A stretch of 64,000 nucleotides of DNA. Source: an uncultured Verrucomicrobiae bacterium. Its GTDB lineage: Bacteria > Verrucomicrobiota > Verrucomicrobiia > Limisphaerales > UBA11358. Positions 199-54,230 of this stretch are shown here, piece after piece. Positions within the stretch are counted from its first letter, which is position 1. Every line of letters starts with the position of its first letter. The position numbers were made by a program, and so were the translations under genes. The stretch lies in NCBI GenBank assembly GCA_963835625.1, contig CAWIGO010000002.1:8116-72115 (forward strand), written 5' to 3'. The notes under the pieces are model-generated. The model saw nothing but the letters and a program-made list of their open reading frames with translations, did not search any database and was not told the DNA's origin.

Positions 199-277
199 GT
201 CCCTGCGGGACTTTGGCAATGCGGAATTTATCCCGGCGTTAAAACGCCGGGCTATTGTCAGGATGTCCCGCTGGGAC
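199..277. repeat. Cluster of three short hairpins (GTCCC-N3-GGGAC, CCCGGCG-N6-CGCCGGG, GTCCC-N3-GGGAC), REP/MITE-like
   Basis: Self-complementary stems read directly at 199-211, 232-251 and 265-277. Confidence 0.5.
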
Positions 278-400
278 AAAGTCAAATGGGTTATTTTCAG
301 CTGAAAAGGGTGCTCGGCCGGGCACTTCATCCCCAAACTTGCCCAATAGGCAGAACAATCGCGCTTGCCGTCGTGCGATGCATTTCCCATCCTCATCACA

Positions 401-1417
401 ATGTCTGAACGGCCCATTTCCACTTTAAACAAACCCGACCCGGCATTGGAACTGACGCTGCGCCCGTCGCTATTTTCCGAATTCACAGGTCAGTTAAAAG
501 TCAAAGAACGTCTGGAAATCGCCGTCGCGGCCGCCAAAAAGCGGAAAGAGGCGCTCGACCATATTTTATTGAGCGGCCCGCCCGGCCTCGGCAAGACCAC
601 GCTCGCCTACATCCTCGCCAAAGCCATGGGCGCAAACGTCAGGAGCACCAGCGGCCCGACCATTGAAAAAGCGGGCGACCTCGCCGGCCTGCTCACCAAT
701 CTCGAAGAAGGCGACGTGCTGTTCATTGACGAAATCCATCGCCTGCAAAAAACCATCGAAGAATATCTTTATCCGGCGATGGAGGATTTCAAACTCGATA
801 TCATCATTGATCAGGGACCAAACGCCCGCAGCGTCCGCCTGAACCTGCCCCGGTTCACCCTGATTGGCGCGACGACCCGCAGCGGCCTGCTCACCGCGCC
901 GTTGCTGACGCGCTTTGCCATCCGCGAACGGCTTGATTATTACGTGGCCGAAGATTTGGAGAAAATCGTCGTCCGCTCCGCGCGGTTGCTGAAGGTGGAA
1001 ATCGAACCCGCCGGCGCGCATGAAATCGCCCGGCGCAGCCGCGGCACGCCGCGCATCGTGAACAACCTGCTCCGCCGCGTCCGCGATTACGCGCAGGTCC
1101 GTCACGACGGCCGCATCACCGCCGCCGTTGCCGACAAGGCGCTGGCCATGCTGGAAATTGACCAGAACGGTCTCGACGAAATGGACAAGCGCATCATCGA
1201 AGCCATCATCGTGAAATTCGGCGGCGGACCGGTCGGTCTCAATTCTCTTGCCGTGGCCGTGGGTGAAGAGCCGGACACGATTGAGGAAGTTTACGAGCCG
1301 TATCTCATCATGGAAGGTTTTCTGAACCGCACGTCGCAAGGCCGCATGGCAACGGAATTGAGTTACAAAAAGCTGGGTTTGAAACCGGCGGCGGGGAATC
1401 AAACGCGGTTGCTTTAG
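401..1417 (+). CDS. ruvB: Holliday junction branch-migration helicase RuvB
   Basis: ORF 365..1417. AAA+ Walker [10 protein letters not shown] and Walker B DEIHR, RuvB-like over the full length. Start moved to ATG 401 (MSERPIS). Confidence 0.95.
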
Positions 1418-1431
1418 CCACAGATTAAATT

Positions 1432-2979
1432 ATGCCTAAACGGACGGACATTCATTCAGTGCTCATCATCGGCGCCGGACCGATCATCATCGGGCAGGCG
1501 TGCGAGTTCGATTATTCCGGCACGCAGGCTTGCAAGGCGCTCAAAGAGGAAGGCTATCGCGTCGTTCTCGTCAACTCCAACCCGGCCACCATCATGACCG
1601 ACCCGGAGTTCGCCGACCGCACCTACATCGAGCCGATTACACCCGAGTGCGTCGAGAAAATCATCGTGCGCGAATTGGAAGAGATGAAACGGATGGGCGT
1701 GCCTGTCGGCCAATCCGCAATCCGCAATCCGCAATCCGCAATTCCACATAAACTCGTTTTGCTCCCGACGCTCGGCGGCCAGACGGCGCTGAACACGGCG
1801 ATGGCCCTCTACCGCAGCGGCGTGCTGGATAAATACGGCGTCGAGATGATTGGCGCGAATGACAAAGCCATCGAACGCGGCGAAGACCGGCAGGTTTTCA
1901 AAGACCTTATGCTCTCCATCGGCCTCGACGTTCCGATTTCCGGCACCGCGCATAACATAGAGGAAGCCCGCGCTGTGACGGACAAGATTGGACGATTTCC
2001 TGTCATCATTCGTCCGGCGTTCACGCTGGGCGGCACCGGTGGCGGCATCGCCTATAACCGCGATGAATTCGACGAACTCGCCAGGCGCGGCATGGAGCTT
2101 TCGCCCGTCAACGAAATCCTCATCGAAGAATCGCTGCTCGGCTGGAAGGAATATGAAATGGAGGTCATGCGCGACAAAGCCGACAACTGCGTCATCATCT
2201 GCTCCATCGAGAACTTCGACCCGATGGGCGTCCACACCGGCGATTCCATCACCGTCGCGCCCATCCAGACGCTGACGGACAAGGAATTCCAGATCATGCG
2301 CGACGCCAGCTTCGCGGTGATTCGCGCGGTGGGCGTCGAGACCGGCGGCTCCAACATCCAGTTTGCCGTCAACCCGGACAACGGCCGCATGGTCATCATC
2401 GAGATGAACCCGCGCGTCAGCCGCAGCTCCGCGCTGGCGTCCAAGGCAACGGGCTTTCCCATCGCAAAAATCGCCGCCAAACTCGCCGTTGGCTACCTGC
2501 TCGACGAACTCAAAAACGACATCACGCGCGAAACCCCGGCTAGCTTCGAGCCGAGCATTGATTACGTCGTCATCAAGATTCCGCGGTTTGCCTTCGAGAA
2601 ATTCGCGCAGGCCGACCCGACTCTGACAACCCAGATGAAAAGCGTGGGCGAAGCGATGGCGATTGGCCGCACGTTCAAGGAAAGCCTGCAAAAATGCCTG
2701 CGCTCGCTGGAGATTGGTCGCAGCGGTCTGGGCGGCGACGGCAAACCCTGGCGCATCGGCACGGAAGTCTATGGCGACCGCGACATCCTGCCGAAGGACG
2801 TCATCAGCCGCAAATTGAGCGTACCGAATGCCGAACGGATTTTCTTCATCCGGCATGCATTGCGGGCAGGATTCACAATTGAGGAAATCTTCCAACTGAC
2901 CAAGATTGACAGATGGTTTTTAGTCCAAATAAAAGAAATCGTGGACTTCGAAGAAGAACTCGCCACGGCTAAACACTAA
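1432..2979 (+). CDS. carB: Carbamoyl-phosphate synthase large subunit, N-terminal half only (split CarB)
   Basis: CPSase ATP-grasp motifs ([43 protein letters not shown]). Stops at residue 515 just after the [11 protein letters not shown] motif of the oligomerisation domain. Confidence 0.9.
1712..1746. repeat. 7-bp-period tandem array (AATCCGC x4 plus one degenerate unit) inside carB
   Basis: Direct reading. Translates in frame as [11 protein letters not shown]. Confidence 0.9.
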
Positions 2980-2989
2980 AATGACCGCT

Positions 2990-3079
2990 TCATTCCGCAA
3001 TCAGCTTGGCCGCTGGTTTCTGACGCAGATCAAAGAAATCGTAGATTTTGAAGAAGAGTTGGCGGCAGCGAAGAATTAG
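2990..3079 (+). repeat. Diverged second copy of the carB-N 3' terminus (encodes [22 protein letters not shown]-stop)
   Basis: Protein-level match to the carB end ([22 protein letters not shown]-stop) with the stop codon at the equivalent position. Confidence 0.85.
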
Positions 3080-3083
3080 TCAG

Positions 3084-3134
3084 GTAGGGCGCGCCACTCC
3101 GTGCGCGCCGGTGGGGCGAGCGTCCTCGCGAGCC
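3084..3134. repeat. REP-like pair: GTAGGG head plus hairpin, followed by a GTGGGG unit
   Basis: GTAGGGCGCGCCACTCCGTGCGCGCC followed by GGTGGGGCGAGCGTCCTCGCGAGCC. Confidence 0.6.
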
Positions 3135-3221
3135 GTAACTAAAATTAGGAAACTTGAAGTCACAAACTGTGACCTCAAAGGTAGTCGCAACCTGTGACCA
3201 CCTCTCAGAGAAAGGGAAAAA

Positions 3222-3777
3222 ATGAATGGGCAAATGGCGGTGGTTCCGATGGAACGAATTGAAAGGGCAATCTTCTCCATTCGCGGCGAAAAGGTGATGC
3301 TGGACAGCGATCTGGCTGAACTTTATGGGGTAGAAACGAAGGCCTTGAATCAGGCCGTCAAACGCAATGCCAATCGCTTTCCAGAAGACTTCATGTTCCA
3401 ACTCACTGCAGGTGAGGTCTTTAAGCTGAACCGGTCACAAATTGTGACCGGTTCCCAGAAGCACCGCGATCCACGTTTTCCGCCTTACGCCTTCACCGAA
3501 CATGGGGCATTGATGCTGGCTAACGTGTTGAACAGCGAGCGGGCGGCGCAAACCAGCGTTCAGGTGGTGCGTGCGTTCGTGCGGCTGACGGCAAATGCTG
3601 GCTTCCAATGCCGAATTGGCGCGGAAACTCGCGGCGGTTGAAAATAAATACGACCGACAGTTCAAAGTTGTCTTTGACGCCATCCGACAGTTAATGTCTC
3701 CACCGGAAACCAAGTGGCGCGAAATCGGATTTCATGTGAAATATGACGACGACAAGCCAAAATCAAAGAAGCGATAG
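3222..3777 (+). pseudogene. ORF6N (KilA-N-like) domain protein, frameshifted near 3590-3600
   Basis: ORFs 3222..3641 and 3595..3777 together rebuild a typical ORF6N protein (IRGEKVMLDSDLAELYGVETKALNQAVKRNANRFPEDFMFQLT ... [33 protein letters not shown]). Confidence 0.8.
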
Positions 3778-3782
3778 TGACG

Positions 3783-3810
3783 CTCAACCCTCAACCATGA
3801 ACTCTCAACC
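3783..3810. repeat. 7-bp-period tandem array (CTCAACC units)
   Basis: ctcaacc ctcaacc atgaact ctcaacc, read directly. Confidence 0.7.
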
Positions 3811-3814
3811 GACT

Positions 3815-3880
3815 TCGTTTCTGGTGCAGGTTAAAGAGATTGTGGATTTTGAGGAAGAACTGGCGGGGGCGACGAAATGA
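3815..3880 (+). repeat. Diverged third copy of the carB-N 3' terminus (encodes [21 protein letters not shown]-stop)
   Basis: Protein-level match to the carB end with the stop at the equivalent position. Confidence 0.8.
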
Positions 3881-3917
3881 AATAATCCGGCAAAACTGCA
3901 ATCTGAAAGGTAAAGCT

Positions 3918-5069
3918 ATGACTACGGATAACTATATTATGATATTCCTCGTAGCAACCTTGTTCGTCTTCGGGACATTCGCGTTGCAAATGTTTTTCAG
4001 ATGGCAGCGAGAAACGAATAAAGACCGGCACGCGGAGGAACAAGCAAGTCGAGAGCAGATGGCCGTTTTTCAGAAAATGCAACAAGAGGCTTCGGAAAGG
4101 CAATCCGCGCATTTGGCTCAAATTTTGCACAGCACGTTGAAATCACAAGAGGACCTTCAGCGTAAAGTCACAAGCCAAGAACCACGCGAAGACGCGGGCT
4201 TAAACGCAGGTGGCTACATAATTTTCGACATACCCGAAGCGAAAAAAAGCATGTTTCACGACTTACTCAAAGGTTTCGAGGATTATGCAAAACTGAGGGG
4301 ATACGTAATAAACTTTTCAATTGACAATTCTTTTTCAAACAAGGTCGCTTTCAAGTTCACATTGGATAGCAGTGGGATCGTCGTCTCGACAAAGCAGGTG
4401 CGCCAAGATTTTAAGGATTACATTGAAAAGATTCAGAGGGGAGATTCCTTGGATGATTTGCCTGTGGTTTTATCGCAAGAAGAACACGCCACCTTACTTG
4501 CTTGCATGAAAACACGGATCAACTTCTTACAGCACAATTACAACATGGAGAAGACTGAAAAGGAGTTTTATCGTCGGTTGGTAAGCGAACTACCAAAACT
4601 TGGGTTTGGAATTGCACCTCTGCAAAACTTTTTTTTGCAAGCGGGCAATTCAAACCAGGCATCCAGCTACCATGCTCTGAATTCGCCCCAAGCCGCTGTA
4701 GGGGTGGGAAACCGCCTAATTGGCAATACGATTGACCAAAGCATTTACATTGCAGATTCGTTCAACGGAAGAACTGAACAGGTTCATGCAGTGTCGGATT
4801 TATGGCTAAAGCTTTGCGATGAATGTAAAAAGCTGCCTGAAGGTAGCCCGGAACACAAAGAATGTTCAAAAGCTATAGATAACCTGCGTAAGGTTGAAAA
4901 CGAGATGAGGGAAGGCGAGCCTCCTGAGCCCAATCGAATTCACAAATGGCTTGAACAGACCAAATACGCGCTTAAAGCGTTCGGGTTGACTAAGGAAATA
5001 ATTGATGCTGGGCGAAAACTTGAAGAAGCGTTTCATCTTTCGGATTGGATCGCGCCCCTCATTTCCTGA
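3918..5069 (+). CDS. Hypothetical protein: N-terminal TM helix, charged coiled-coil segment, unknown C-terminal domain
   Basis: Long ORF in a visibly AT-richer stretch. ATG 3918 is preceded by aaagg. No recognisable motif. Confidence 0.6.
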   Translation: MTTDNYIMIFLVATLFVFGTFALQMFFRWQRETNKDRHAEEQASREQMAVFQKMQQEASERQSAHLAQILHSTLKSQEDLQRKVTSQEPREDAGLNAGGYIIFDIPEAKKSMFHDLLKGFEDYAKLRGYVINFSIDNSFSNKVAFKFTLDSSGIVVSTKQVRQDFKDYIEKIQRGDSLDDLPVVLSQEEHATLLACMKTRINFLQHNYNMEKTEKEFYRRLVSELPKLGFGIAPLQNFFLQAGNSNQASSYHALNSPQAAVGVGNRLIGNTIDQSIYIADSFNGRTEQVHAVSDLWLKLCDECKKLPEGSPEHKECSKAIDNLRKVENEMREGEPPEPNRIHKWLEQTKYALKAFGLTKEIIDAGRKLEEAFHLSDWIAPLIS

Positions 5070-5354: not shown

Positions 5355-6189
5355 CATGGGCGCAAAACAGAACTCCTCCCGCCGCGCGGATGAATACGTC
5401 CACGGTTATTCGGAGCGCGAGGATCAACGGCTTCGCGATCAAGCACAAACGCTGGCGGAATTGTTGCATCAAGACACATTTTATCCGGTCGGAAGCCGCG
5501 TGCTTGAAGCCGGCTGCGGCGTCGGCGCGCAAACGGTCATTCTGGCGAAGAACAGTCCCGGCGCGCGGTTCACGTCCGTGGATATTTCGCCCGTGTCGGT
5601 GAAGGCGGCGGAAGCGGCGGTTCACCGCGCGGGTTTTTCCAACGTTACTTTTCGGCCGGCAAACATTTTCAAGCTGCCATTTCCGAAGGCGAGTTTCGAT
5701 CATGTGTTCGCGTGCTTCGTGCTGGAACATTTGAAAGAGCCAGCCAAAGCGCTGCGGTGTTTGAAGGCGGTTCTGAAGCCGGGCGGGACGCTGACGGTCA
5801 TCGAAGGCGACCACGGCTCGACTTTATTTCATCCGCGCAGTGACGCGGCGTGGAAGACCATCCAGTGCCTGATTGATCTTCAGGCGGAGGCGGGCGGTGA
5901 TGCGCTGATTGGCCGGCGGCTGTTTCCCCTGGTGCGTGCGGCGGGTTTTCGCAAGGTCAAGGTTTCGCCACGCTTTGTTTATGTGGACGCCAGCCGTCCC
6001 GCGTGGGTGGAGGGATTCACGCGCAACACTTACATCGCCATGGTGGAAGGCGTGCGCGACCGCGCACTGGCGGCGGGATTGATTGGCCGGCGGGCATGGG
6101 AAAAAGGCATCGCCGACTTGAAGGAGAGCGCCGGTTCGAGCGGTGTGTTTTGTTACACCTTCTTCAAAGCGGTGGCGGTGAAAAGTTAA
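5355..6189 (+). CDS. Class I SAM-dependent methyltransferase
   Basis: Motif I VLEAGCGVGAQT and Methyltransf_11-like layout. Start set at ATG 5355 (MGAKQNSS). Confidence 0.8.
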
Positions 6190-6294: not shown

Positions 6295-7047
6295 TTGTGT
6301 CATCATGAAGTCGTGGCGCGACACCAATCCCATCGCGGGCCGGCTTCCAAGAACGAACAGCTCTTTGGCGCGCGTCAGCTTCCCGCGTTATGCACCGCCA
6401 TGCAAGACCTCTGCTGGCTGCTCGACCGTGGTTACGCTTCGCACTCCGCCACCGAACTCGTCGGCAACCGCCACAATCTCACCAGCCGCCAGCGCATGGC
6501 GGTGGGCCGTTGCGCCTGTTCTCTCGACGACGCGCAACATCGCCGTCGCCTTCAGCTCCAGCCTGCGGATGTCCGTGGCCGGGAACTCTGGCTGGACGGT
6601 TACAACGTGTTGACCGTGCTTGAAAGCGCGCTTGCCGGCGGCGTGGTGTTGCTGGGCCGCGACGGTTGTTGCCGCGACATCGCCGGCATTCACCGCCGTT
6701 ATCGAAAAGTGAATGAGACCGCAACCGCGCTGCGCATGGTCGGTGAAACCGCGGCGGGCTGGGGAGTGACGTGTTGCCGTTGGTGGCTGGACAAACCGGT
6801 GTCGAACAGCGGGCGGCTCAAGACGCTCATCAAGGAAATGGCCGCCAGCGCCGGTTGGAACATGCCGGTGGAACTGGTGTTCAATCCCGACCGCGTTCTG
6901 TGGGAAAGCGAACACGTCATCGCCACGTCCGACGGTGTCGTGCTGGATCGTTGCCGGCAATGGGTGAACCTGACTCGGCAAATCATCATGGAGCGCATCC
7001 CACAGGCGCGGCTGCTGAATTTGTCTTGTCCCGACGGGACAAGGTAG
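6295..7047 (+). CDS. DUF434-like conserved hypothetical protein
   Basis: HRGP...LF...L..A..DL.WLLDRGY....ELVGNRHNLTSRQRMAV pattern recalled from the DUF434 family. Start uncertain. Confidence 0.55.
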   Translation: MCHHEVVARHQSHRGPASKNEQLFGARQLPALCTAMQDLCWLLDRGYASHSATELVGNRHNLTSRQRMAVGRCACSLDDAQHRRRLQLQPADVRGRELWLDGYNVLTVLESALAGGVVLLGRDGCCRDIAGIHRRYRKVNETATALRMVGETAAGWGVTCCRWWLDKPVSNSGRLKTLIKEMAASAGWNMPVELVFNPDRVLWESEHVIATSDGVVLDRCRQWVNLTRQIIMERIPQARLLNLSCPDGTR

Positions 7048-7870: not shown

Positions 7871-7930
7871 GGTGGGGCGAGCGTCCCCGCGAGCCGGAAA
7901 TTTCGGTCGCCTCGGCGAGGCAACCCTACC
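7871..7930. repeat. REPIN (GTGGGG unit plus inverted GTAGGG unit)
   Basis: GGTGGGGCGAGCGTCCCCGCGAGCC ... GGTCGCCTCGGCGAGGCAACCCTACC. Confidence 0.75.
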
Positions 7931-8657: not shown

Positions 8658-8726
8658 GGGTTTTGACCAGTGTGAAAAGACCGGCGCGCCGGTTCAATGT
8701 AAATTGCGTGCAAAATGGCGTCATTT

Positions 8727-8819
8727 GTGGTTTACTGCGCGCATTCTTAATTGGCCGTCATATGGATGGCATGAATTCATTGATGGAACAGCACAAGGCC
8801 AAGCTGACCCCCGGAATCT
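8727..8819 (+). repeat. Diverged copy of the lysS 5' region (upstream leader plus first 16 codons)
   Basis: The atggatggcatgaattcattgatggaacagcacaaggccaagctgacc segment aligns to lysS 10383-10430 (40/48 identical by hand count). The upstream gatttactgcg motif is shared. Confidence 0.85.
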
Positions 8820-10303
8820 CCAGGACGTGCGAGCGCACAATCGTCTGTCTGTTGTGCCTGCTGGCGGCAATTCATGTTTTTGTTTATTCCGCCGCCTTTC
8901 CTTTTTTCAACAACGTGGATGAGCAAATCCATCTCGACTTGGTGGTGAGATACTCGCAAGCCCGCCTTCCGCGCGCGTTGGACACGCCGTGTCCGGAAGC
9001 CATGCTTTATTTCGTGATTTATAACACTCCGGAATATCTATGGCCGCCGGACACCTACCCTGGCGGACGATTTCCCGCGCCGCCGTGGATCCAGCCGTTG
9101 AACAAGGTCATGCCCATGTTGCAATCGCGGATAGCCGCGTGGCAAAGCATGAAAAATTGTGAAACCTCGCAGCCGCCACTCTATTACACGCTGGCGGGTT
9201 TGTGGTGGCGCTTGGGAAAGGTATGCGGAATTCATGACGGCTTTTTGCTCTATTGGGTCCGCTTCCTGAATGTGTTTCTCGTTGCGGTACTCGTGTGGCT
9301 GGGTTTTTTGGCCGCACGGATGGTTTTTCCGGACAACCTGTTTTTGCGGCTCGGCGTGCCGACATTGATCGCGTTCATGCCGCAAACCGCGTTTTACTCG
9401 ATTCAAAATGACGTGCTTTCACCATTGTGTTTCGGCGCGGCATTCATCTGCCTGGTGAAATTGCAGCGTGCGGAGGTGCCGGATACCCGACTCGGAACCG
9501 CCACCGGGCTGGCGCTGGCGGCCACGTTCCTGACCAAAATCAGCAACCTGCCGTTGCTGGTCATCTCGGCTTTGGTCGTTCTGTTCAAAACGTGGCGACT
9601 ATTCCGGGCTGAACAATTGCGCACGGCGGCTCCGGCCTTGTTATCGCTCGCGATTTGCGCCGGATTACCGATGGTGCTTTGGCTCGCGTGGTGCAAAATC
9701 GTCTTTGGCGATTTCACCGGCACGTCGGCCAAAATCCAATTCCTCGGCTGGACGCACAAACCGTTCGGCGAATGGTGGCACCACCCGATTTTCACGCCAC
9801 ATGGGTTGTGGACATTTGTTTCGGGACTCATGGCGACGTTGTGGCAGGGCGAGTTTTTCTGGCATCGCATGCCACTGGCTTGGCCTGCCATTGACACCGT
9901 TTACACGATTTCATCAATCGGCTTCATCGGGGTGGCCTTGGTCGCTTTGCTGCCGCGATTCACGGTTGTGACCCAACTACAGCGTCAGGCGCTTTGGCTT
10001 GGCTTCTGGTGTCTCATCGCGGCAGTCGCATTTCTCGGATTTCTGTCCCTCATTTACAATTTTCACGATTGCCTTTATCCATCGCAAGCGCATCCGTATT
10101 TCACTTCAGGACGGCTGATGCTTGGCGCACTGATTCCATTTCTGCTGCTGTTCGTGTATGGACTAGACCGGACATTAAGTTGTACGAAACGCCATTGGCC
10201 GCGGTGGCTGGCGTTGGGGGGATTTGTCCTGTTCATGCTGGTTTCGGAGATTGCCATAGACTGGCGGATTTTCCCGAATCCCTACAACTGGTTTCACATG
10301 TGA
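8762..10303 (+). CDS. Polytopic membrane protein, GT-C (ArnT/PMT-like) glycosyltransferase fold candidate, with a lysS-derived N-terminus
   Basis: About 12 predicted TM segments, with a DE..H motif in the first loop (NNVDEQIHLD). The first 16 codons, MDGMNSLMEQHKAKLT, mirror LysS MDDTNSLIEQRKAKLT. Confidence 0.65.
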   Translation: MDGMNSLMEQHKAKLTPGISRTCERTIVCLLCLLAAIHVFVYSAAFPFFNNVDEQIHLDLVVRYSQARLPRALDTPCPEAMLYFVIYNTPEYLWPPDTYPGGRFPAPPWIQPLNKVMPMLQSRIAAWQSMKNCETSQPPLYYTLAGLWWRLGKVCGIHDGFLLYWVRFLNVFLVAVLVWLGFLAARMVFPDNLFLRLGVPTLIAFMPQTAFYSIQNDVLSPLCFGAAFICLVKLQRAEVPDTRLGTATGLALAATFLTKISNLPLLVISALVVLFKTWRLFRAEQLRTAAPALLSLAICAGLPMVLWLAWCKIVFGDFTGTSAKIQFLGWTHKPFGEWWHHPIFTPHGLWTFVSGLMATLWQGEFFWHRMPLAWPAIDTVYTISSIGFIGVALVALLPRFTVVTQLQRQALWLGFWCLIAAVAFLGFLSLIYNFHDCLYPSQAHPYFTSGRLMLGALIPFLLLFVYGLDRTLSCTKRHWPRWLALGGFVLFMLVSEIAIDWRIFPNPYNWFHM

Positions 10304-10382
10304 TGCGGAACGCCATGCTGCGCCGCATCTTTTGCGTGCGAAGCGAGTTCCGGTGTGATTTACTGCGTGGACACCAATCGGT

Positions 10383-11831
10383 ATGGACGACACGAATTCA
10401 TTGATCGAACAACGCAAGGCCAAGCTGACCGCGTTGCGCGCCAAGGGCATTGACCCGTTCAAAAATAAATTCACGCCCGGCGAAACCTGCGAGCATGCGC
10501 GCGACCATTACGCCGAAGGCCGTGAAGTCGCCATTGCCGGTCGCATTACCGCGCACCGCGAGATGGGCAAAAGCATGTTCATTGACGTGCGCGACCAGAG
10601 CGGACGCATCCAGGCTTACGCGCAGAAAAATGTCCTCGGCGACGAGCAATTCGACATCTTCCGGCATCTCGACCTCGGTGATTTCATCGGCGCACGTGGA
10701 CATTTGTTCACAACCAAAACCGGTGAAATTTCCATCAAGCTCGCCAGCTTCACGATTCTGGCCAAGGCGTTGCGTCCGCCACCGGCGAAATGGTATGGAC
10801 TTGAAGACACGGAAATCCGTTACCGCCAACGTTATCTCGATTTGATGGCGAATCCAGAAGTGAAGGATGTTTTTTTCAAGCGCAGCCAAATCATCGCCGA
10901 GATCCGGAATTTTCTACATTCGCGCGGCTTTGTGGAAGTCGAGACACCGATGATGCAGGCGATTCCCGGCGGCGCGGCGGCGCAACCGTTCAAGACGCAT
11001 CACAACGCACTCGGCTGCGATTTTTATCTGCGCATTGCGCTGGAACTTTACCTTAAGCGTCTGCTTGTCGGCGGTGTGGACAAGGTTTTCGAGATTGGCC
11101 GCATCTTCCGCAACGAAGGTTTTTCGCGCAAACACAATCCCGAATTCACGATGTTGGAACTCTATCAGGCCTACGGCGATTACGAGAGCATGATGGAACT
11201 CATGCAAGGCATGGTCTGCCACGTTGCGCAAAAAGTTTTGGGCACGCTGAAAATCGAAACCAAAGACGCCGGGGGCAAGGTCACCAAAACAATTGATCTC
11301 ACGCCGAACTGGAAGCGTGTGAAATACAAGGATCTTGTGCGTGGAAAAGCGGGCGCGGATTGGTTTGACGTTTCACCAAAGGAACGGCACGAGCGCGCAA
11401 TCAAACTCGGCGCAGAGATTGCGAAGGACTACGAAGATTTTGAAGTCACACAGGCCGTATTCGAGAAGCTGATTGAACCAACACTTATCAATCCGACGTT
11501 TGTGACACACGCGCCGAAGGAATTGATTCCACTCGCCAAACTTTCACCCGACGATCCGACGACCGTCGAAGTTTTTGAGTGCTGCATCAACGGCCAGGAA
11601 ATCGCGCCTGCTTACACCGAACAGAACGACCCGATTGAGCAGCGCGAACGGCTGGAGCATCAGGCCGGCGGCGAGCAGCAAAAGCTGGATGAAGATTTTC
11701 TTGTCGCGCTCGAACATGGCATGCCTCCGGCGGGTGGCATGGGCGTGGGCATTGACCGTTTGTGCATGATGCTGCTCGGTCAGGAAAGCATCCGCGACGT
11801 GATTTTATTCCCGCAGTTGAAGCCAAAATAA
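10383..11831 (+). CDS. lysS: Lysine--tRNA ligase (class II)
   Basis: 482 aa with class II motifs ([33 protein letters not shown]). Confidence 0.95.
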   Translation: MDDTNSLIEQRKAKLTALRAKGIDPFKNKFTPGETCEHARDHYAEGREVAIAGRITAHREMGKSMFIDVRDQSGRIQAYAQKNVLGDEQFDIFRHLDLGDFIGARGHLFTTKTGEISIKLASFTILAKALRPPPAKWYGLEDTEIRYRQRYLDLMANPEVKDVFFKRSQIIAEIRNFLHSRGFVEVETPMMQAIPGGAAAQPFKTHHNALGCDFYLRIALELYLKRLLVGGVDKVFEIGRIFRNEGFSRKHNPEFTMLELYQAYGDYESMMELMQGMVCHVAQKVLGTLKIETKDAGGKVTKTIDLTPNWKRVKYKDLVRGKAGADWFDVSPKERHERAIKLGAEIAKDYEDFEVTQAVFEKLIEPTLINPTFVTHAPKELIPLAKLSPDDPTTVEVFECCINGQEIAPAYTEQNDPIEQRERLEHQAGGEQQKLDEDFLVALEHGMPPAGGMGVGIDRLCMMLLGQESIRDVILFPQLKPK

Positions 11832-11842
11832 GCTGTTAAATT

Positions 11843-12499
11843 TCAATCTTCCAACCATTCAATAATTTCGTGATCTCTACGCATATCAAATTTGGCGTAA
11901 TCTTCTCTTGAAGCATCGAATCCGTATTTCAAATGATACATAAGTGATTTTCCGTCTTCCGGATCATGTTTAAAACACACCTCATACCAAACTGTTTGCA
12001 AATTAAATTGCTGATGGAATACGTTCATAATTCCACGAATGAGTGCAAGCGCAGCTGTGATTTCTGAAAATTGAATCGTTGGCAAAGGGATTTCCTTCAT
12101 CTGCCTTAAGAGGTCGTTGTGCGCTATTTTCTCGTCACGCCAAGTTTTGACGGCTTTCATTTTCCCTTTGAGTGCTAAAATCTGTTGTGACACCTGACTT
12201 TGCAGACTTGCATCTTTAATTTCTAACACGAGATTATCAAACGACAGATTTTCTTTGACGATTGATTTAACTTTTGTTTTAGGTGGGTCTGTCAGCCTAG
12301 CGATGGAAAGAAGAATATCAAACAGCATTAAATTCCAGAGGTAGCCGAAAAATACTGGCGCTGTTTCATTCAACAATTTCACCTTCCTATCGCTGCCAAA
12401 AACCTGTTTGAAGTGTTTCCACTTGTAGTGCAATCGCACCACTTCAGCGTCAATGGCTTTGATCTTATTTTTAAGTGTGTCTGGCATATTGGCGGCCAC
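11843..12499 (-). CDS. HEPN-domain protein, AbiU2-like
   Basis: 218 aa, helical, with an R-x5-H motif (WRDEKIAHND). AT-rich. Overlaps the upstream GIY-YIG gene by 29 nt. Confidence 0.55.
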   Translation of the reverse strand: MAANMPDTLKNKIKAIDAEVVRLHYKWKHFKQVFGSDRKVKLLNETAPVFFGYLWNLMLFDILLSIARLTDPPKTKVKSIVKENLSFDNLVLEIKDASLQSQVSQQILALKGKMKAVKTWRDEKIAHNDLLRQMKEIPLPTIQFSEITAALALIRGIMNVFHQQFNLQTVWYEVCFKHDPEDGKSLMYHLKYGFDASREDYAKFDMRRDHEIIEWLED

Positions 12500-13310
12500 G
12501 TTTTAGAGTTACGCCCAAACGTCGTAGGCGACTCGATATGCCATGATGGTCTATGTTAAACAACCGCCCGATTTCGCGGCACGATTTGCCTTCTGAATGT
12601 AATTTTAGACAGGCCTGATCCATTTCTTCTGCACTATTAAAACCTAAAGATTTTCTGTTAAATTTTTCAAAATAGATTTTTCGAAGCCCTGCGGTTCTCG
12701 ATGGTAACTTTCTAATTTTATCCAAAAGCTGAACCAGCGGGTTGTAAATTTCTGGACGTTTGAGGGCTGCTGTAAAACCAGCTATGCGCTTGGCTTCATT
12801 TTCCGGCGAATGCAACCATTTTTGCGCGTTCTTTCTCCATTCTGGATTTTTTGCATGACGTTGTTTCAGTGCTTCAGAAACTCGCTTGTGAGTGTCAGGC
12901 GTCCATACGCCTCTGCGATACCCACGAATTTTCTTCTTCTGTGATTCGGTCCATTTGTAACCGCGGGTTGATTCTGCTTTTGGCGCAGAATTGAAGTTTC
13001 TCGTGTAAGCATGGAAATGATCCATCCAGAATTGTTCCCGTTCATCTAACCGTTTGCTCTCGCCAACCTTTTCCAACAAAATAGCTGTGAAAGCTCCTTG
13101 GCCATATTTGTTCCATGCTCTTTGCAAATGTCTTGAGTGATGTCGTTTTGCTAGAAGCGCCCGTAAATGCTGGTTGAGCCGCTTCCGAACAATTTTCGAG
13201 CTGCCAACATAGATTCTGCCACTGGCATCGTGCCGGATGCCATAAACGCCACAACATTGGAAATCAATTGATAAGCGATTGTTGAATATGCTTTCAATTA
13301 TTCCGAGCAT
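12471..13310 (-). CDS. GIY-YIG homing-type endonuclease (I-TevI/Seg-like architecture with a C-terminal HTH)
   Basis: GVYGI...RIYVGSS, conserved R (KRLNQHLR), E (REQFWMDHF), and a C-terminal HTH (SCREIGRLFNIDHHGISSRLRRLG). Confidence 0.8.
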   Translation of the reverse strand: MLGIIESIFNNRLSIDFQCCGVYGIRHDASGRIYVGSSKIVRKRLNQHLRALLAKRHHSRHLQRAWNKYGQGAFTAILLEKVGESKRLDEREQFWMDHFHAYTRNFNSAPKAESTRGYKWTESQKKKIRGYRRGVWTPDTHKRVSEALKQRHAKNPEWRKNAQKWLHSPENEAKRIAGFTAALKRPEIYNPLVQLLDKIRKLPSRTAGLRKIYFEKFNRKSLGFNSAEEMDQACLKLHSEGKSCREIGRLFNIDHHGISSRLRRLGVTLKRGRQYARHT

Positions 13311-13323
13311 GGTAGAAGTTTAA

Positions 13324-13482
<159 letters not shown>

Positions 13483-25497: not shown

Positions 25498-26643
25498 ATG
25501 GCGAGGACCTTTCGTGTCGGCCTAATCGGCTACCGCTTCATGGGCAGGGCGCACTCGAATGCCTGGCGGCAGGCGCCACGCTTCTTCAATCTCAAGGCGA
25601 ATGTCGAGATGCACACCCTATGCGGGCGCGATGTGGTAGGGGTGCAAATGGCGCGCGCACAACTCGGCTGGCAGAACACCACGACGGATTGGCGCGAAAT
25701 TGTCGAATCGCCGCTGATTGACATCGTGGACATCGTCACGCCGACGAATTTTCACGCGGAAATGGCGATTGCCGCGGTGAAAAACGGCAAGCACGTTTTG
25801 TGCGAAAAGCCGCTGGCGCTGAATCTCAAACAGGCCGAGGCGATGTTCGCCGCCGCGCACAAGGCGAAGGTCGTCCACATGGTCTGCCACAATTACCGGC
25901 GCATTCCGGCAATCGCGCTGGCGAAGCGGATGATTGGCGAAGGCGCGCTGGGCCGGATTTTTCATTTTCACGCGCGTTACGCGCAGGACCGGCTGGCCGA
26001 CCCGGAATTTCCGCTGGACTGGCGTTTGCAAAAGGAGACCAGCGGCTGTGGCGTCCACAGCGACATCAATTCGCACGTCATTGATTTGGGGCGTTACCTC
26101 GTCGGCGAATTCAAGGAGGTCTGCGGGTTGCTGAACACGTTTATACCGGAACGTCCGCTGGCGGATGCGCTGGCCAAAGGCGCGCGCAGGATGGGCAAGG
26201 TCACCGTGCCGGACTCCGCAATGTTCATCGGGCGGATGGAAAATGGCGTGCTGGCGAACGTGGAAGCCACGCGCTACGCGCTCGGCCGCAAGAACCACAT
26301 CGCTGTCGAAATCAACGGAAGCAAAGGCTCGATCTATTTTGATTTTGAGGACATGAACCGGCTGAAATTTTACAATGGCGACGACCCGAAAGACCGGCGG
26401 GGTTTCCGCGACATTCTCGTGACGGAGCGCGACGGCGTGCAACCGTATGTCGGCCATTGGTGGCCGCCGGGACACGGCATCGGCTACGAACACACGTTCA
26501 TTCATGTGGTCGCCGATTTTGTGAACGCCTGCGTCGAGAGGAAACCGGCGCAACCAACTTTTGAGGATGGCTTGAAAAATCAGCGCGTGCTCGCCGCCGT
26601 CGAGGAATCGGCCAAAACCGGCAAATGGGTGAAATTGAAATGA
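25498..26643 (+). CDS. Gfo/Idh/MocA family oxidoreductase
   Basis: N-terminal Rossmann VGLIGYRFMGRAH and an EKP motif (VLCEKPLA). Confidence 0.85.
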   Translation: MARTFRVGLIGYRFMGRAHSNAWRQAPRFFNLKANVEMHTLCGRDVVGVQMARAQLGWQNTTTDWREIVESPLIDIVDIVTPTNFHAEMAIAAVKNGKHVLCEKPLALNLKQAEAMFAAAHKAKVVHMVCHNYRRIPAIALAKRMIGEGALGRIFHFHARYAQDRLADPEFPLDWRLQKETSGCGVHSDINSHVIDLGRYLVGEFKEVCGLLNTFIPERPLADALAKGARRMGKVTVPDSAMFIGRMENGVLANVEATRYALGRKNHIAVEINGSKGSIYFDFEDMNRLKFYNGDDPKDRRGFRDILVTERDGVQPYVGHWWPPGHGIGYEHTFIHVVADFVNACVERKPAQPTFEDGLKNQRVLAAVEESAKTGKWVKLK

Positions 26644-26698
26644 TTTGACCCGCCCGTCCGCGCGCCGGTGCGCATTGAAAAAGGCCGCTGGTCATTGT

Positions 26699-26735
26699 GC
26701 CCGCGTGGCGAAATTGGCAGACACGCCAGATTCAG
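26699..26735 (+). pseudogene. tRNA-Leu 5' half remnant (acceptor, D arm and anticodon stem up to CAG)
   Basis: GCCCGCGTGGCGAAATTGGCAGACACGCCAGATTCAG aligns to the first 37 nt of the intact tRNA at 27232, then the similarity stops. Confidence 0.85.
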
Positions 26736-26891
26736 TTTTTTACGTTCACCATTTTTAGAGGACATCTCCGCGTTTCAATGAGAGCGATAATGGCGGGGAT
26801 TTTGCAAAGTTATAAATAATTCTATACAGGCTGAAGAATGTGTTATAAACGGCATTAACCCATTAAAAACCATCGTGAATGAAACCAAAAT

Positions 26892-27080
26892 ATGAAAGCC
26901 ACAATCAAAATCGAAGTGGAAGTGCCTGATGGGACAATGGATCACCAATTAACCGTGGACAGGATTTTAACCACCAGAGATATTTTCTCTGAGGTAAAGC
27001 GTGATATGGAATCCTATTTTAGAACCAGTGGTGACTGGCAAACCATTGCGAGGCTCAAATTTTCCATGATGCCGGAATAA
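26892..27080 (+). CDS. Hypothetical 62-aa protein (cassette cargo)
   Basis: The only ORF in the AT-rich insert. No clear SD and no motif. Confidence 0.3.
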   Translation: MKATIKIEVEVPDGTMDHQLTVDRILTTRDIFSEVKRDMESYFRTSGDWQTIARLKFSMMPE

Positions 27081-27092
27081 TGGTGTCTGATC

Positions 27093-27176
27093 TGTTTGAG
27101 GCGGCGGCTCAGCCGGTGCTCAAGGCGGTGTGTCGAAGAATCGTCCAAAGCCGGCAAGTGGGTGAAATTGGAATGA
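27093..27176 (+). pseudogene. Diverged, frameshifted copy of the oxidoreductase 3' terminus
   Basis: Encodes LFEAAAQPVLKAV / (1-nt shift) / VEESSKAGKWVKLE-stop, against TFEDGLKNQRVLAAVEESAKTGKWVKLK-stop in the gene. Confidence 0.8.
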
Positions 27177-27231
27177 TTTGGCTTGCCCGTTCATGCGGTG
27201 GCGCGTATTGAAAGAAGCTGCCGGTCATCGT

Positions 27232-27316
27232 GCCCGCGTGGCGGAATTGGCAGACGCGCTAGATTCAGGTTCTAGTGGGTAACACCATACAGGTTCAAAT
27301 CCTGTCGCGGGCACCA
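27232..27316 (+). tRNA. tRNA-Leu (anticodon CAG), type II with a long variable arm and encoded CCA
   Basis: Manual fold: acceptor GCCCGCG/CGCGGGC, anticodon stem CTAGA/TCTAG with loop TTCAGGT, T arm ACAGG-TTCAAAT-CCTGT. Confidence 0.9.
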
Positions 27317-48613: not shown

Positions 48614-48648
48614 CACAATTCACTATTCACCATTCACAATTCACTATT
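48614..48648. repeat. 7-bp-period tandem array (CACAATT / CACTATT / CACCATT), 5 units
   Basis: Direct reading, upstream of thiD. Confidence 0.85.
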
Positions 48649-51212: not shown

Positions 51213-51956
51213 GTGTCCGACACACTGGTTGTCAACGAAATCTATTTGGGCCTGCAAGGGGAAAGCACCTTCGCCGGGCTGCCGTGCGTTTTTATCCGGC
51301 TCACCGCCTGCGACTTGCGCTGCTCGTATTGCGACACCGCCTACGCCTTCACCGAAGGCAGAAAAATGTCGCTCGGAGAAATCCGCGCGGCAGTGCAGCG
51401 CTTGGCCTTGCCATTCTCAAATCCGAAATCCGAAGTCCGAAATCAAAAATTGCCCCTGGTCGAGCTGACCGGCGGCGAGCCGTTGCTTCAGAAAAATTCC
51501 CTGGCGCTGATGGAGCAGCTTTGTGACGATGGGTTCACCGTTCTTCTCGAAACCAGCGGCGCACACGACATTTCTCAAGTGGACGCCCGGGTTCGCCAGA
51601 TCATGGATTTGAAATGTCCCAGCAGCGGCGAAGTCGCGCGCAATCGTCTTGAGAACATTCCGCACCTCAAGGCCACCGATGAAATCAAATTCGTCGTTGG
51701 CACGCAGCAGGATTACGATTGGGCAAAGCAAAAAATTTCCGAGCACAAGCTCGACGCCATTTGCCCGTTGTTAATTTCGTGGGTGCAGCCGCTCGCGCCG
51801 GAGCAGCGGGATACATCGCTTAAAAAAGTTCCATTGGGGCAGACGCCCATTTCACGCCAGCAACTCGCGGAAAAAATCATCGCCGACGCACTGCCCGTGC
51901 GTTTTCAGATTCAAATACACAAGGTGATTTGGCCGCCGGAGCAACGCGGCGTTTGA
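51213..51956 (+). CDS. queE: 7-carboxy-7-deazaguanine synthase (radical SAM)
   Basis: LQGESTFAGLPCVFIRLTACDLRCSYCDT and TGGEPLLQ motifs. Confidence 0.9.
   Translation: MSDTLVVNEIYLGLQGESTFAGLPCVFIRLTACDLRCSYCDTAYAFTEGRKMSLGEIRAAVQRLALPFSNPKSEVRNQKLPLVELTGGEPLLQKNSLALMEQLCDDGFTVLLETSGAHDISQVDARVRQIMDLKCPSSGEVARNRLENIPHLKATDEIKFVVGTQQDYDWAKQKISEHKLDAICPLLISWVQPLAPEQRDTSLKKVPLGQTPISRQQLAEKIIADALPVRFQIQIHKVIWPPEQRGV
51420..51447. repeat. 7-bp-period tandem array (AATCCGA-type, 4 units) inside queE
   Basis: aatccga aatccga agtccga aatcaaa. In frame as NPKSEVRNQ. Confidence 0.85.
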
Positions 51957-53396: not shown

Positions 53397-54230
53397 ATGC
53401 GGGAACTTCTGGCCACGCGCGGGATTCAGTTGACGAAATCCCTCGGCCAGAATTTTCTGCACGACGGCAATCAACTTCGGCGCATCATTGAGGCGGCGGA
53501 ATTAAAAAAGACGGACAAAGTCCTTGAAATCGGGCCGGGACTTGGGCCGCTCACCGAATTGCTTTTGGAAAGAGCGGGTGAGGTTTTGGCCATTGAAAAG
53601 GACGCGCGGCTGGTGCAATTTTTGCGCGAGCGATTTTCCAACCCGCAATCCGTAATCCGCAATCCGCCATTGCATTTGCTCCACGCCGACGCGCTTGAAT
53701 TCCTGCGTCGTGAGCCGCGCGACTGGAGCGATTGGAAGCTCGTGGCCAATCTGCCGTATTCCGTCGCTTCGCCGATTTTGGTGGAACTGGCGCAATCGCG
53801 CGGGCGACCGGAACGGATGGTCGCAACGCTGCAACTCGAAGTCGCGCGGCGGCTCACGGCCAAAGCCGGCGATGCGGATTACGGCGTGTTCACGTTGCTG
53901 ATTCAACTCGACTATGAATCCCGAAAGACTTCGGGATTCAAGATTCCGGCAAGTTGCTTTTTCCCGGAGCCGGACGTGGATTCAGCATGTGTGGTTTTGA
54001 TTCGCCGCGCCACGCCGCTTTTGCCCGAAAGCCAGCGTGCGGCGTTTGTGAAAATTGTGAAACGGGCGTTTTCGCAGCGGCGTAAAATGATGCTGAAACT
54101 GCTGCGCGAAGACTGGCTGGCGGAGAAATTGGAGCGGGCGTTTGAAGACTTACAGCTTTCGTCACAAGTGCGCGCGGAAGCGGTGAGCTTGGAGCAGTTT
54201 ATTGAGTTAACTCAAATATTGGCGGAGTAG
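53397..54230 (+). CDS. rsmA: 16S rRNA (adenine1518/1519-N6)-dimethyltransferase
   Basis: KSLGQNFL, EIGPGLGPLT, NLPYSVASP motifs. Confidence 0.92.
   Translation: MRELLATRGIQLTKSLGQNFLHDGNQLRRIIEAAELKKTDKVLEIGPGLGPLTELLLERAGEVLAIEKDARLVQFLRERFSNPQSVIRNPPLHLLHADALEFLRREPRDWSDWKLVANLPYSVASPILVELAQSRGRPERMVATLQLEVARRLTAKAGDADYGVFTLLIQLDYESRKTSGFKIPASCFFPEPDVDSACVVLIRRATPLLPESQRAAFVKIVKRAFSQRRKMMLKLLREDWLAEKLERAFEDLQLSSQVRAEAVSLEQFIELTQILAE
53640..53667. repeat. 7-bp-period tandem array (AATCCGC-type, 4 units) inside rsmA
   Basis: aacccgc aatccgt aatccgc aatccgc. In frame as NPQSVIRNP. Confidence 0.85.

Follow-up and report, generated by a model that had tools for sequence, protein, structure and literature searches.

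Fossil gene ends stacked behind the split carB gene of an uncultured Verrucomicrobiae bacterium, probably by integrase-independent serial 3'-end displacement

The DNA described here, referred to below as the window, is a stretch of 64,000 nucleotides from an uncultured Verrucomicrobiae bacterium of the Limisphaerales (GenBank assembly GCA_963835625.1, contig CAWIGO010000002.1, positions 8,116 to 72,115 of the forward strand). It carries carB-N, the gene coding for the N-terminal half of a split carbamoyl-phosphate synthetase large subunit, and the 3' end of this gene occurs three times in tandem on the same strand, once as the end of the gene itself and twice as displaced fragments located behind it. 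The initial annotation of this DNA had interpreted the three copies as a cassette array created by serial insertions at one attachment point. The present analysis deals with the origin of these copies, with the genes that accompany them in the window and in related loci, and with their relation to other systems in which gene ends accumulate.

The carB-N gene and the three copies of its 3' end

The gene and the three copies are arranged as follows:
1432-2979, + strand: carB-N, 515 amino acids, N-terminal half of a split carbamoyl-phosphate synthetase large subunit, ending inside the oligomerisation domain
2911-2979, + strand: copy 1, the carB-N 3' end now in use, stop TAA
3011-3079, + strand: copy 2, a displaced former gene end contained in the small open reading frame (ORF) 2981-3079, stop TAG
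3818-3880, + strand: copy 3, the most distal and most altered displaced end, contained in ORF 3743-3880, stop TGA

When the peptide of each copy is compared to the window by tblastn, the other two copies are retrieved with E values of 5e-10 to 1.5e-6, far ahead of the best unrelated match (E of at least 0.075), and no fourth copy is found in the 64-kb window by the same search. The occurrence of three copies, as originally proposed, is thus borne out, together with the nucleotide identity of about 70% and the near identity of the peptides. Over the last 22 codons, the pairwise differences in a codon alignment amount to 21, 22 and 17 of 66 nucleotides (68%, 67% and 74% identity), and the codons changed between copies 1 and 2 consist of 12 synonymous and 3 non-synonymous ones, 15 of the 21 differences being located at third codon positions. 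The stops do fall on one aligned position, as had been noticed, and consist of the three different codons TAA, TAG and TGA. The gap of 10-20 nucleotides announced between the carB-N stop and copy 2 has to be corrected, the distance to recognisable homology being about 31 nucleotides. The longest exact run shared between copies is of about 12 nucleotides, with no identical core, and copy 1 is rich in rare A/T-ending codons such as AGA, TTA and ATA. Because the differences are biased to synonymous changes, the copies appear to have diverged mostly as working gene ends in separate genomes.

The predicted CarB-N protein comprises the pre-ATP-grasp domain, the ATP-grasp domain and the first two thirds of the oligomerisation domain (Pfam CPSase_L_D1, D2 and partial D3), while an uninterrupted carB of about 1070 amino acids occurs in other phyla and in other Verrucomicrobiota. 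The split point, which we take to lie close to residue 455 of the Escherichia coli sequence, differs from that of the split carB genes of Aquifex and Methanocaldococcus, which are cut at another place. The carB-N stop is a genuine gene end, typical of a split-carB clade, because the three closest reference genomes stop at exactly this position. These genomes (L001, L002 and L003, with 90%, 85% and 83% amino-acid identity, respectively) are all metagenome-assembled genomes of Verrucomicrobiota, L002 being labelled Limisphaerales, and the same stop position is shared by about 67 metagenome loci. The second half of the gene, carB-C, was searched for in the window and is absent from it; in the whole split-carB clade of Verrucomicrobiota (window, L001-L003 and L084-L202), the C-terminal half is encoded elsewhere. 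A lookup of the exact CarB-N protein gave no record, and the synteny of the window with the three reference genomes is limited to carB-N alone.

Related metagenome loci (L084-L202) were collected with a degenerate DNA pattern designed for the peptide E[IL]V[DE]FEExLA, which matched at least 120 metagenome stretches; among the first 80 of them, 74 are genuine split-gene ends, originating from soils, peat and fresh water. Taken together, the 74 analysed loci and 40 remaining ones make up about 114 related loci, all from Limisphaerales-like Verrucomicrobiota with a carB split at this point, L163-L202 being inspected by pattern count and a single alignment only. Many of the related contigs are short, and a hidden Markov model of the gene end was less sensitive than tblastn on short fragments.

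Compared to the gene ends of these relatives, copy 1 shows the lowest mean identity, with 72% versus 79.5% for copies 2 and 3, and each copy finds its best match in a different set of relatives. The closest match of copy 1 is the first copy of L102 (88%). Copy 3 reaches 92-94% identity with the fragments displaced in L100 and L118, as well as with the ends of the L140 and L090 genes. The equivalent of copy 2 is the working gene end of L133, which has the same cassette behind it, and the exact string TAGTCAGGTAGGGCGCGCC, composed of the stop of copy 2 and the beginning of the element that follows, also occurs behind the displaced copy of L147.

Mosaic ancestry, cargo and recurrence in relatives

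The DNA surrounding the copies comprises the following features, "REP-like" referring to repetitive extragenic palindromic elements:
2823-3010, + strand: foreign patch of about 190 nucleotides, comprising the last 52 or so carB-N codons including copy 1, the stop and the short spacer
2980-3010, + strand: short spacer with a degenerate ATTCCGC/AATCCGC heptamer motif
3085-3135, + strand: GC-rich REP-like double-hairpin element, directly after the stop of copy 2
3154-3198, + strand: GTCACA-N-TGTGAC palindromes upstream of the ORF6N gene, conserved in L133 and L118
3222-3777, + strand: ORF6N-domain gene (PF10543, E = 1.4e-32), anti-repressor-like
3783-3810, + strand: heptamer array of four CTCAACC units (Tandem Repeats Finder), 5' junction of copy 3
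3918-5069, + strand: low-GC (44.5%) gene for a 383-amino-acid protein, immediately behind the array

Up to position 2822 or thereabouts, carB-N is 90-98% identical to its homologues in L133, L132 and L149. Over the last 155 nucleotides or so, its identity to every relative falls to 72-84%, as against 83-98% among the relatives themselves, and the per-site alignment situates the switch of ancestry at 2815-2823, about 90 nucleotides upstream of the repeat. Past this switch, the gene resembles L143, L153 and L105, then the first copy of L102, and the GC content of the patch is 45% versus 54% for the window. Because of the fall in identity past about 2823, copy 1 is attributed to a foreign patch, so that carB-N is a mosaic gene with a horizontally acquired end. 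The "empty cassette" first recognised between copies 1 and 2 is better described as a patch of about 190 nucleotides, made of a foreign gene end and a short heptamer-rich spacer, and the same unit is present in L102, L092, L114, L106 and L136. Local drops of identity were also observed in the last 150-400 nucleotides of carB-N from L153, L143 and L156, which suggests similar recombination patches.

The relatives also provide an indication of the order of events. The arrangement found in L133 consists of copy 2, ORF6N and copy 3 without the foreign patch, and the copy 2-type end (stop plus REP-like string) is still in use in L133, L101, L111 and L138, where a similar string lies behind the working end. 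This type of end has been pushed downstream in the window, by a patch of 100 nucleotides, and in L147, by a segment of 1.9 kb. Since the string is displaced in both of these and in use elsewhere, one former end has been displaced independently by different inserts. Judged from such comparisons, copy 3 is the oldest end in the window, copy 2 the next one and copy 1 the latest.

A different behaviour of displaced and working ends is also apparent at the peptide level. Over 18 aligned positions, residues outside the recurrent repertoire represent 16 of 313 in 21 displaced or orphan copies versus 5 of 1206 in 67 in-gene ends (odds ratio 13, p = 6e-8), and the departures found in the displaced copies include leucine-to-proline changes and an internal stop. 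The displaced copies thus have the appearance of fossils under relaxed constraint and not of genes.

The carB-N end is single-copy in L001-L003 and in most of the metagenome relatives, and because most relatives possess one copy, the extra copies are considered as gains. Two to three tandem copies occur in at least 14 of the 74 analysed loci, the window not being counted, including L088, L092, L100, L102, L105, L106, L107, L114, L118, L133, L136, L147 and L156. Among the remaining 40 loci, L163, L182, L190 and L202 contain two exact pattern matches each, which brings the number of related loci with this architecture to at least 18 of about 114. Orphan fragments with no gene body on the contig were found in L093, L103, L144, L146 and L157. 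Depending on the locus, the fragments consist of 12 to 112 codons: 12-13 in L136, L106 and L114, 20-23 in the window, L092, L102, L118 and L133, 42 in L107 and L100, 55 in L147 and 112 in L105, and the units measure 100 to 800 nucleotides. The variability in length results in part from later trimming, because the 23-codon fragment of L118 derives from an L107-type fragment of 42 codons by a deletion between GACCG repeats.

The DNA carried between and behind the gene ends differs from locus to locus, which answers the question, raised in the initial annotation, of whether relatives carry different cargo at this site. L105 carries a BrnT toxin and L147 a glycosyltransferase on the opposite strand; in L144 a ParE toxin precedes the orphan copy, L136 shows a weak match to DUF4160, and L088 encodes a CotH protein of 1141 amino acids. 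The cargo gene of L100 is PIN-like by eye only, with no Pfam match, and related sequences occur in L152 and L126. A Pfam census of 141 cargo ORFs located within about 3 kb of the gene end, of which 25 of the 96 families were listed, yielded three TIR domains, a BsuBI/PstI restriction-modification pair and many ordinary enzymes; Mrr occurs in L110. In many loci the right-hand neighbour is an EngB-like GTPase gene, situated 267 to 4800 nucleotides away. Because both the cargo and the distance to this neighbour vary among loci, the carB-N flank is a hypervariable hotspot. Serial insertions, each bringing its own gene end, are thus supported by the synonymous-biased divergence, the single copy of most relatives and the differing cargo.

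In the window, the REP-like element, the frameshifted ORF6N gene and the heptamer array are indeed located between copies 2 and 3, as first described, and one unit carries ORF6N. In PADLOC, the ORF6N protein matches the defence candidate PDC-S05 (E = 4e-46), and in PHROGs it matches phage anti-repressor families; its gene is broken by a one-nucleotide insertion at 3588, with intact homologues in L133, L107 and L118. The whole cassette has its homologue in the DNA located between the copies of L133 (80% nucleotide identity), L107 and L118 (72-73%). ORF6N is not strictly tied to the repeat pair: in L084, L101, L149 and L153 it lies behind carB-N although no second copy could be detected, and the CTCAACC heptamers accompany the copy-3 unit in L088, L182 and L190 without ORF6N. 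The array together with a copy-3-type unit has been found in L133, L088, L146, L144, L182 and L190. The palindromes at 3154-3198 are likely operator sites. Another palindrome, a perfect one of 13+13 nucleotides, lies within the ORF6N coding region at 3428-3454 (GAACCGGTCACAA/TTGTGACCGGTTC); it is kept at the same place in L107 and L118 with both arms changed (GTCACA/TGTGAC to GTGCCA/TGGCAC), and may be an operator or a hairpin co-evolving with the protein.

Homologues of the spacer 2980-3010, longer and likewise made of heptamers, occur in L102, L092, L114, L106 and L136, and the junction GGC|CGCTGG is common to the window, L102 and L092. Behind the carB-N stop, the REP-like element is also present in L101, L111, L138 and L147 (peptide SGRARHSVRAG), and its second half recurs at 7874-7895 of the window; its predicted fold is no more stable than that of shuffled sequence (z = 0.16). 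A scan for promoters and terminators over 2700-4100 gave sites no more numerous than in shuffled sequence. As regards the 383-amino-acid protein encoded behind the array, no match was found in Pfam, PADLOC or PHROGs and no homologue in the related loci. Further on, between the array and the conserved msrB-yebC genes, lie a class-I S-adenosylmethionine-dependent methyltransferase gene (5359-6189; partial match to the PADLOC "mad2" model of MADS, E = 3e-21) and, next to it, a DUF434/DUF5616 protein gene (6295-7047), both of which may be further cargo of the hotspot.

Heptanucleotide arrays (CAATCCG, AAATCCG, CACAATT, CAGAAGT) are distributed across the window at 1711-1742, 48614-48648, 51419-51444, 53639-53667 and 59871-59897, several of them inside long ORFs, and related heptamers fill the short inter-copy spacers of L102, L092, L106, L114, L136 and L157. 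An in-frame insertion of 14 amino acids in CarB-N, missing from L002 and L003, coincides with the array at 1711-1742.

By comparing the window to itself, three further scars of similar organisation were identified:
11692-13481, + strand: second scar, 3' end of a class-II aminoacyl-tRNA synthetase gene, of which the last 139 nucleotides (11692-11830) are repeated at 13343-13481
11843-12499, - strand: AbiU2 gene (HEPN/AbiU2), inside the second scar
12471-13310, - strand: GIY-YIG homing-endonuclease-like gene with a C-terminal helix-turn-helix, inside the second scar
8704-10430, + strand: third scar, synthetase 5' end, 10332-10430 being repeated at 8704-8809 on the other side of a DUF2142 membrane-protein gene
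26580-27316, + strand: fourth scar, at tRNA-Leu, with a repeat of about 160 nucleotides (26580-26738 and 27109-27271) of about 78% identity

In the second scar, the two repeats are 93.5% identical, differ mostly by synonymous changes and both end at the stop. They enclose an insert of 1.5 kb with 41.5% GC, in which the GIY-YIG protein matches homing-endonuclease families (E = 1.2e-17 in PADLOC, 1.4e-21 in PHROGs); neither GIY-YIG nor AbiU2 has homologues in the 74 related loci. The repeat of the third scar consists of the leader and about the first 50 nucleotides of the synthetase gene, and represents a 5'-end version of such scars. For both the second and the third scar, an uninterrupted single-copy site occurs in L112 and L103, a comparison that did not tell which of the synthetase 3' repeats is native. 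In the fourth scar, the repeat covers the 3' end of an oxidoreductase gene, the intergenic region and the first 40 nucleotides of tRNA-Leu(CAG), the intact tRNA-Leu being located at 27232-27316 (ARAGORN); an Rfam search of positions 1-30000 of the window retrieved the tRNA-Leu only. The insert is a low-GC segment of about 370 nucleotides, with an ORF of 62 amino acids (26892-27080) devoid of any family match. Scars are therefore not specific to carB, because three more of them, with diverged repeats of 50-160 nucleotides, occur at unrelated genes in the window, and the presence of four such scars in 64 kb points to a general way of DNA acquisition in this lineage.

Proposed mechanism and competing explanations

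The array is, in our opinion, probably a stack of fossil gene ends resulting from an integrase-independent serial displacement of the carB-N 3' end. DNA from a related bacterium would enter the chromosome with part of carB-N, its stop and the DNA located downstream in the donor. On the left side, the incoming DNA would be fixed by recombination in the conserved body of carB-N, and the breakpoint of the homologous side does lie within the gene. On the right side, it would join inside or just upstream of the resident gene end, either by homology-facilitated illegitimate recombination or by a single crossover of a small circle made of one repeat and its cargo. The incoming end would then become the working end, and the resident end, shunted downstream as a promoterless fragment, would decay. 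At least two such events would account for the window, copy 3 being the oldest end, copy 2 having arrived next with the REP-like element and ORF6N, and the patch of about 190 nucleotides with copy 1 having come last. The horizontal origin of the ends, the mosaicism of carB-N, the recurrence of the arrays and the relaxed constraint on the displaced copies are shown by the data, as is the negative outcome of the integrase search; the recombination pathway of the distal join is the part that we infer. Illegitimate recombination, circle crossover and the repair of a nuclease-induced break are the candidate routes for this join.

The search for a site-specific integrase was of limited sensitivity. 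No tyrosine or serine recombinase was detected in the stop-free segments of the 74 loci and of the 64-kb window, using a regular expression for the box-II motif (HxxR...GH...Y) and phmmer with lambda Int, XerC, XerD and gamma-delta resolvase as queries, and no recombinase was recognised by Pfam among about 30 individually scanned cargo proteins. In viral contigs, the strict peptide pattern had no match and the loose pattern had two chance matches, with no carB context. The attachment point proposed at first, if understood as a defined site served by a recombinase, is thus not supported, since no recombinase was detected in the 74 loci or the window, no identical core is common to the copies and the fragments vary from 12 to 112 codons. 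Neither does a single attachment point agree with a foreign segment that starts at about 2823, some 90 nucleotides upstream of the repeated stretch.

Several points weigh against serial displacement as proposed here. A divergent or novel recombinase could escape a search based on a regular expression, four query sequences and 25 of 96 census families. The arrays share ancestry, as seen from the short-spacer family, the CTCAACC unit and the ORF6N cassette, so that the number of independent events is perhaps 6-8, not 18. Some of the 5' boundaries cluster at RWFL or FL, which could be a preferred break site, although this clustering is attributed to shared ancestry. No microhomology was demonstrated at the junctions, the distal ones being overlaid by heptamer expansion and deletions. 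These bacteria are not known to be naturally competent, and a single crossover in only 60-130 nucleotides at 70-90% identity would be inefficient. Finally, experiments have shown homology-facilitated illegitimate recombination to be infrequent (Kirchberger et al. 2017, PMC5361080).

A bolder version of serial displacement can be formulated, for which the odds are rather low. Conserved gene ends of this verrucomicrobial clade would act as integrase-free landing pads, and units composed of a gene-end fragment and its cargo would circulate from genome to genome, perhaps as small circles generated by RecA or with the aid of homing nucleases such as the GIY-YIG protein encoded at 12471-13310; they would insert by homology and stack up. 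If true, this would represent a chromosome-wide, recombinase-independent counterpart of the integron, spreading defence and toxin-antitoxin genes and leaving behind a dated fossil record of the donors.

Among the rival explanations, the one that survives best, albeit doubtful, assumes that the copies are attL/attR-type remnants of site-specific integrative elements (prophage-like, or resembling integrative and conjugative elements (ICEs) or cis-mobilizable elements (CIMEs)), which would have carried a surrogate gene end in their attP site, accreted in tandem at the carB-N 3' end and later lost their integrase modules. It accounts well for the reading frame, copy 1 completing carB-N where relatives show an empty site, for the displacement of the old end in the same orientation, for the mobile, defence or toxin-antitoxin nature of the cargo and for the low-GC DNA located behind the array, and some fragment boundaries do recur at RWFL or FL. 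However, neither the 74 loci and the window nor the scanned cargo proteins gave any sign of a tyrosine or serine recombinase, no viral contig offered the motif in a carB-like context, and units of 100-800 nucleotides are too small for autonomy. No fixed crossover core was found at a constant position, the longest exact run being of about 12 nucleotides, and a single att site is hard to reconcile with such variable lengths, the absence of a core, the small units and a patch starting well upstream.

It is improbable that breaks introduced by a nuclease drove the process. A homing-type nuclease would cut the conserved gene end in genomes devoid of the insert, and repair would copy the insert from a donor allele protected by its synonymous differences, the distal part of the resident sequence surviving as a fragment. 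The GIY-YIG protein encoded inside the synthetase 3' scar and the mostly synonymous differences of the corresponding repeats are in line with this scheme, which would also explain discrete 5' boundaries, but none of the carB-N arrays contains a nuclease of this type, and nothing homologous to the GIY-YIG protein was found in the 74 loci. Moreover, the ORF6N domain binds DNA and is not known to act as a nuclease, and classical homing does not duplicate its target.

The next two explanations are both very improbable. A duplication of the 3' end in place, by slippage or unequal crossing-over followed by drift, would readily produce tandem copies in the same orientation, and the heptamer microsatellites at the junctions testify to slippage in this genome. 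However, a duplicate without function that drifts in place by 30% would accumulate mostly non-synonymous changes and stops, unlike the copies found here with their 12 synonymous versus 3 non-synonymous codons; in addition, the copies match different relatives best and copy 1 belongs to a larger foreign patch. Alternatively, copies 2 and 3 might be functional small genes whose peptides mimic the C-terminal helix of CarB-N, in keeping with the ATG starts of ORFs 2981-3079 and 3743/3797-3880 and with the ATG that recurs directly after the stop in L102, L114 and L092. Against this stand the roughly 13-fold excess of departures from conserved residues in displaced copies, including leucine-to-proline changes and an internal stop, and the existence of fragments of only 12 codons and of many without start codon. 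The least credible explanation, a metagenome assembly artefact joining strain variants of the gene end in tandem, could be suspected since the window resembles sequences known only from metagenome-assembled genomes, but many independent assemblies, produced by different projects, contain these same arrangements, and an error in the assembly graph is unlikely because the exact runs common to the copies, of about 12 nucleotides at most, are too short to mislead an assembler.

Comparison with known systems and significance

Serial displacement of the carB-N end can be compared to several systems in which gene ends or small units accumulate at one place. Some integrative elements restore the 3' end of the protein-coding gene that they target, as known from phage 21 and e14 at icd and from the accretion of ICEs and CIMEs in streptococci. 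As in these icd-type elements, the replacement end is diverged and conserves the protein, the old end is found at the far side and the units can stack. The icd-type elements depend on a site-specific integrase and a fixed crossover core, which were not found here in the 74 loci and the window.

The likeness to integron arrays lies in a one-directional stack of small, promoterless units, often with toxin-antitoxin or defence cargo, in which new units are added at a fixed end. Unlike in integrons, no intI was detected in the recombinase search of the 74 loci and the window, there are no attC-type imperfect palindromes, and the repeated unit is a coding gene end without inverted repeat; a scan of 2850-4000 located palindromes in the ORF6N cassette only, and not in the repeated units. 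An integron-like cassette reading, implied by the initial annotation, is thus not supported. A diversity-generating retroelement was considered as well and rejected, the differences between copies involving all four bases and mainly third codon positions; no reverse transcriptase was found among the Pfam hits of the neighbouring ORFs, a window-wide search for it not being part of the analysis.

The arrays of effector and immunity genes associated with the type VI secretion system (T6SS) of Vibrio cholerae have been attributed to homology-facilitated illegitimate recombination followed by ordinary homologous recombination (Kirchberger et al. 2017, PMC5361080). They share with the carB-N arrays a conserved upstream anchor, older 3' ends shunted downstream, a successive build-up and, as far as the recombinase search went for carB-N, the absence of an integrase. 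Selection on the immunity genes explains the persistence of the T6SS arrays, whereas the pieces retained here are non-functional gene ends, and the cargo consists of toxin-antitoxin, defence or miscellaneous genes.

The rhs loci contain dissociated tips with variable core lengths, which have been explained by the RecA-dependent insertion of small circles (Jackson et al. 2009, PMC2935791). In these loci and in the orphan cdiA-CT/cdiI and rhs-CT modules alike, promoterless 3' fragments of variable conserved length lie behind an intact gene on the same strand, and the tips are acquired horizontally with no integrase involved. The carB-N arrays possess the same hallmarks of C-terminal displacement, with 3' fragments lacking the 5' part, horizontally acquired tips and a mosaic parent gene. 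In rhs and cdi loci, the hypervariable toxin tips come with immunity genes and change the protein; here the same housekeeping peptide is supplied each time and CarB is unaffected, so that the tips are not polymorphic toxin tips, and it is the cargo behind each tip that varies.

Because the fossil ends keep the synonymous signature of their former genome, the sequence alone is enough to trace the succession of events and the lineages of the donors, and the scars record gene acquisition in an abundant, uncultivated lineage of soil and fresh water, with no integrase detected at the examined loci. They further identify the region flanking carB-N as a hotspot of small genes for defence or toxin-antitoxin systems, and in genome annotation such fragments should be called scars instead of small genes or att sites. 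Compared to the known systems, the novelty resides in a conserved housekeeping tip in place of a polymorphic toxin tip, in defence and toxin-antitoxin cargo and in the lack of a detected integrase, which extends the architecture of 3'-end displacement, known until now from polymorphic toxin loci, to housekeeping genes without effect on the protein.

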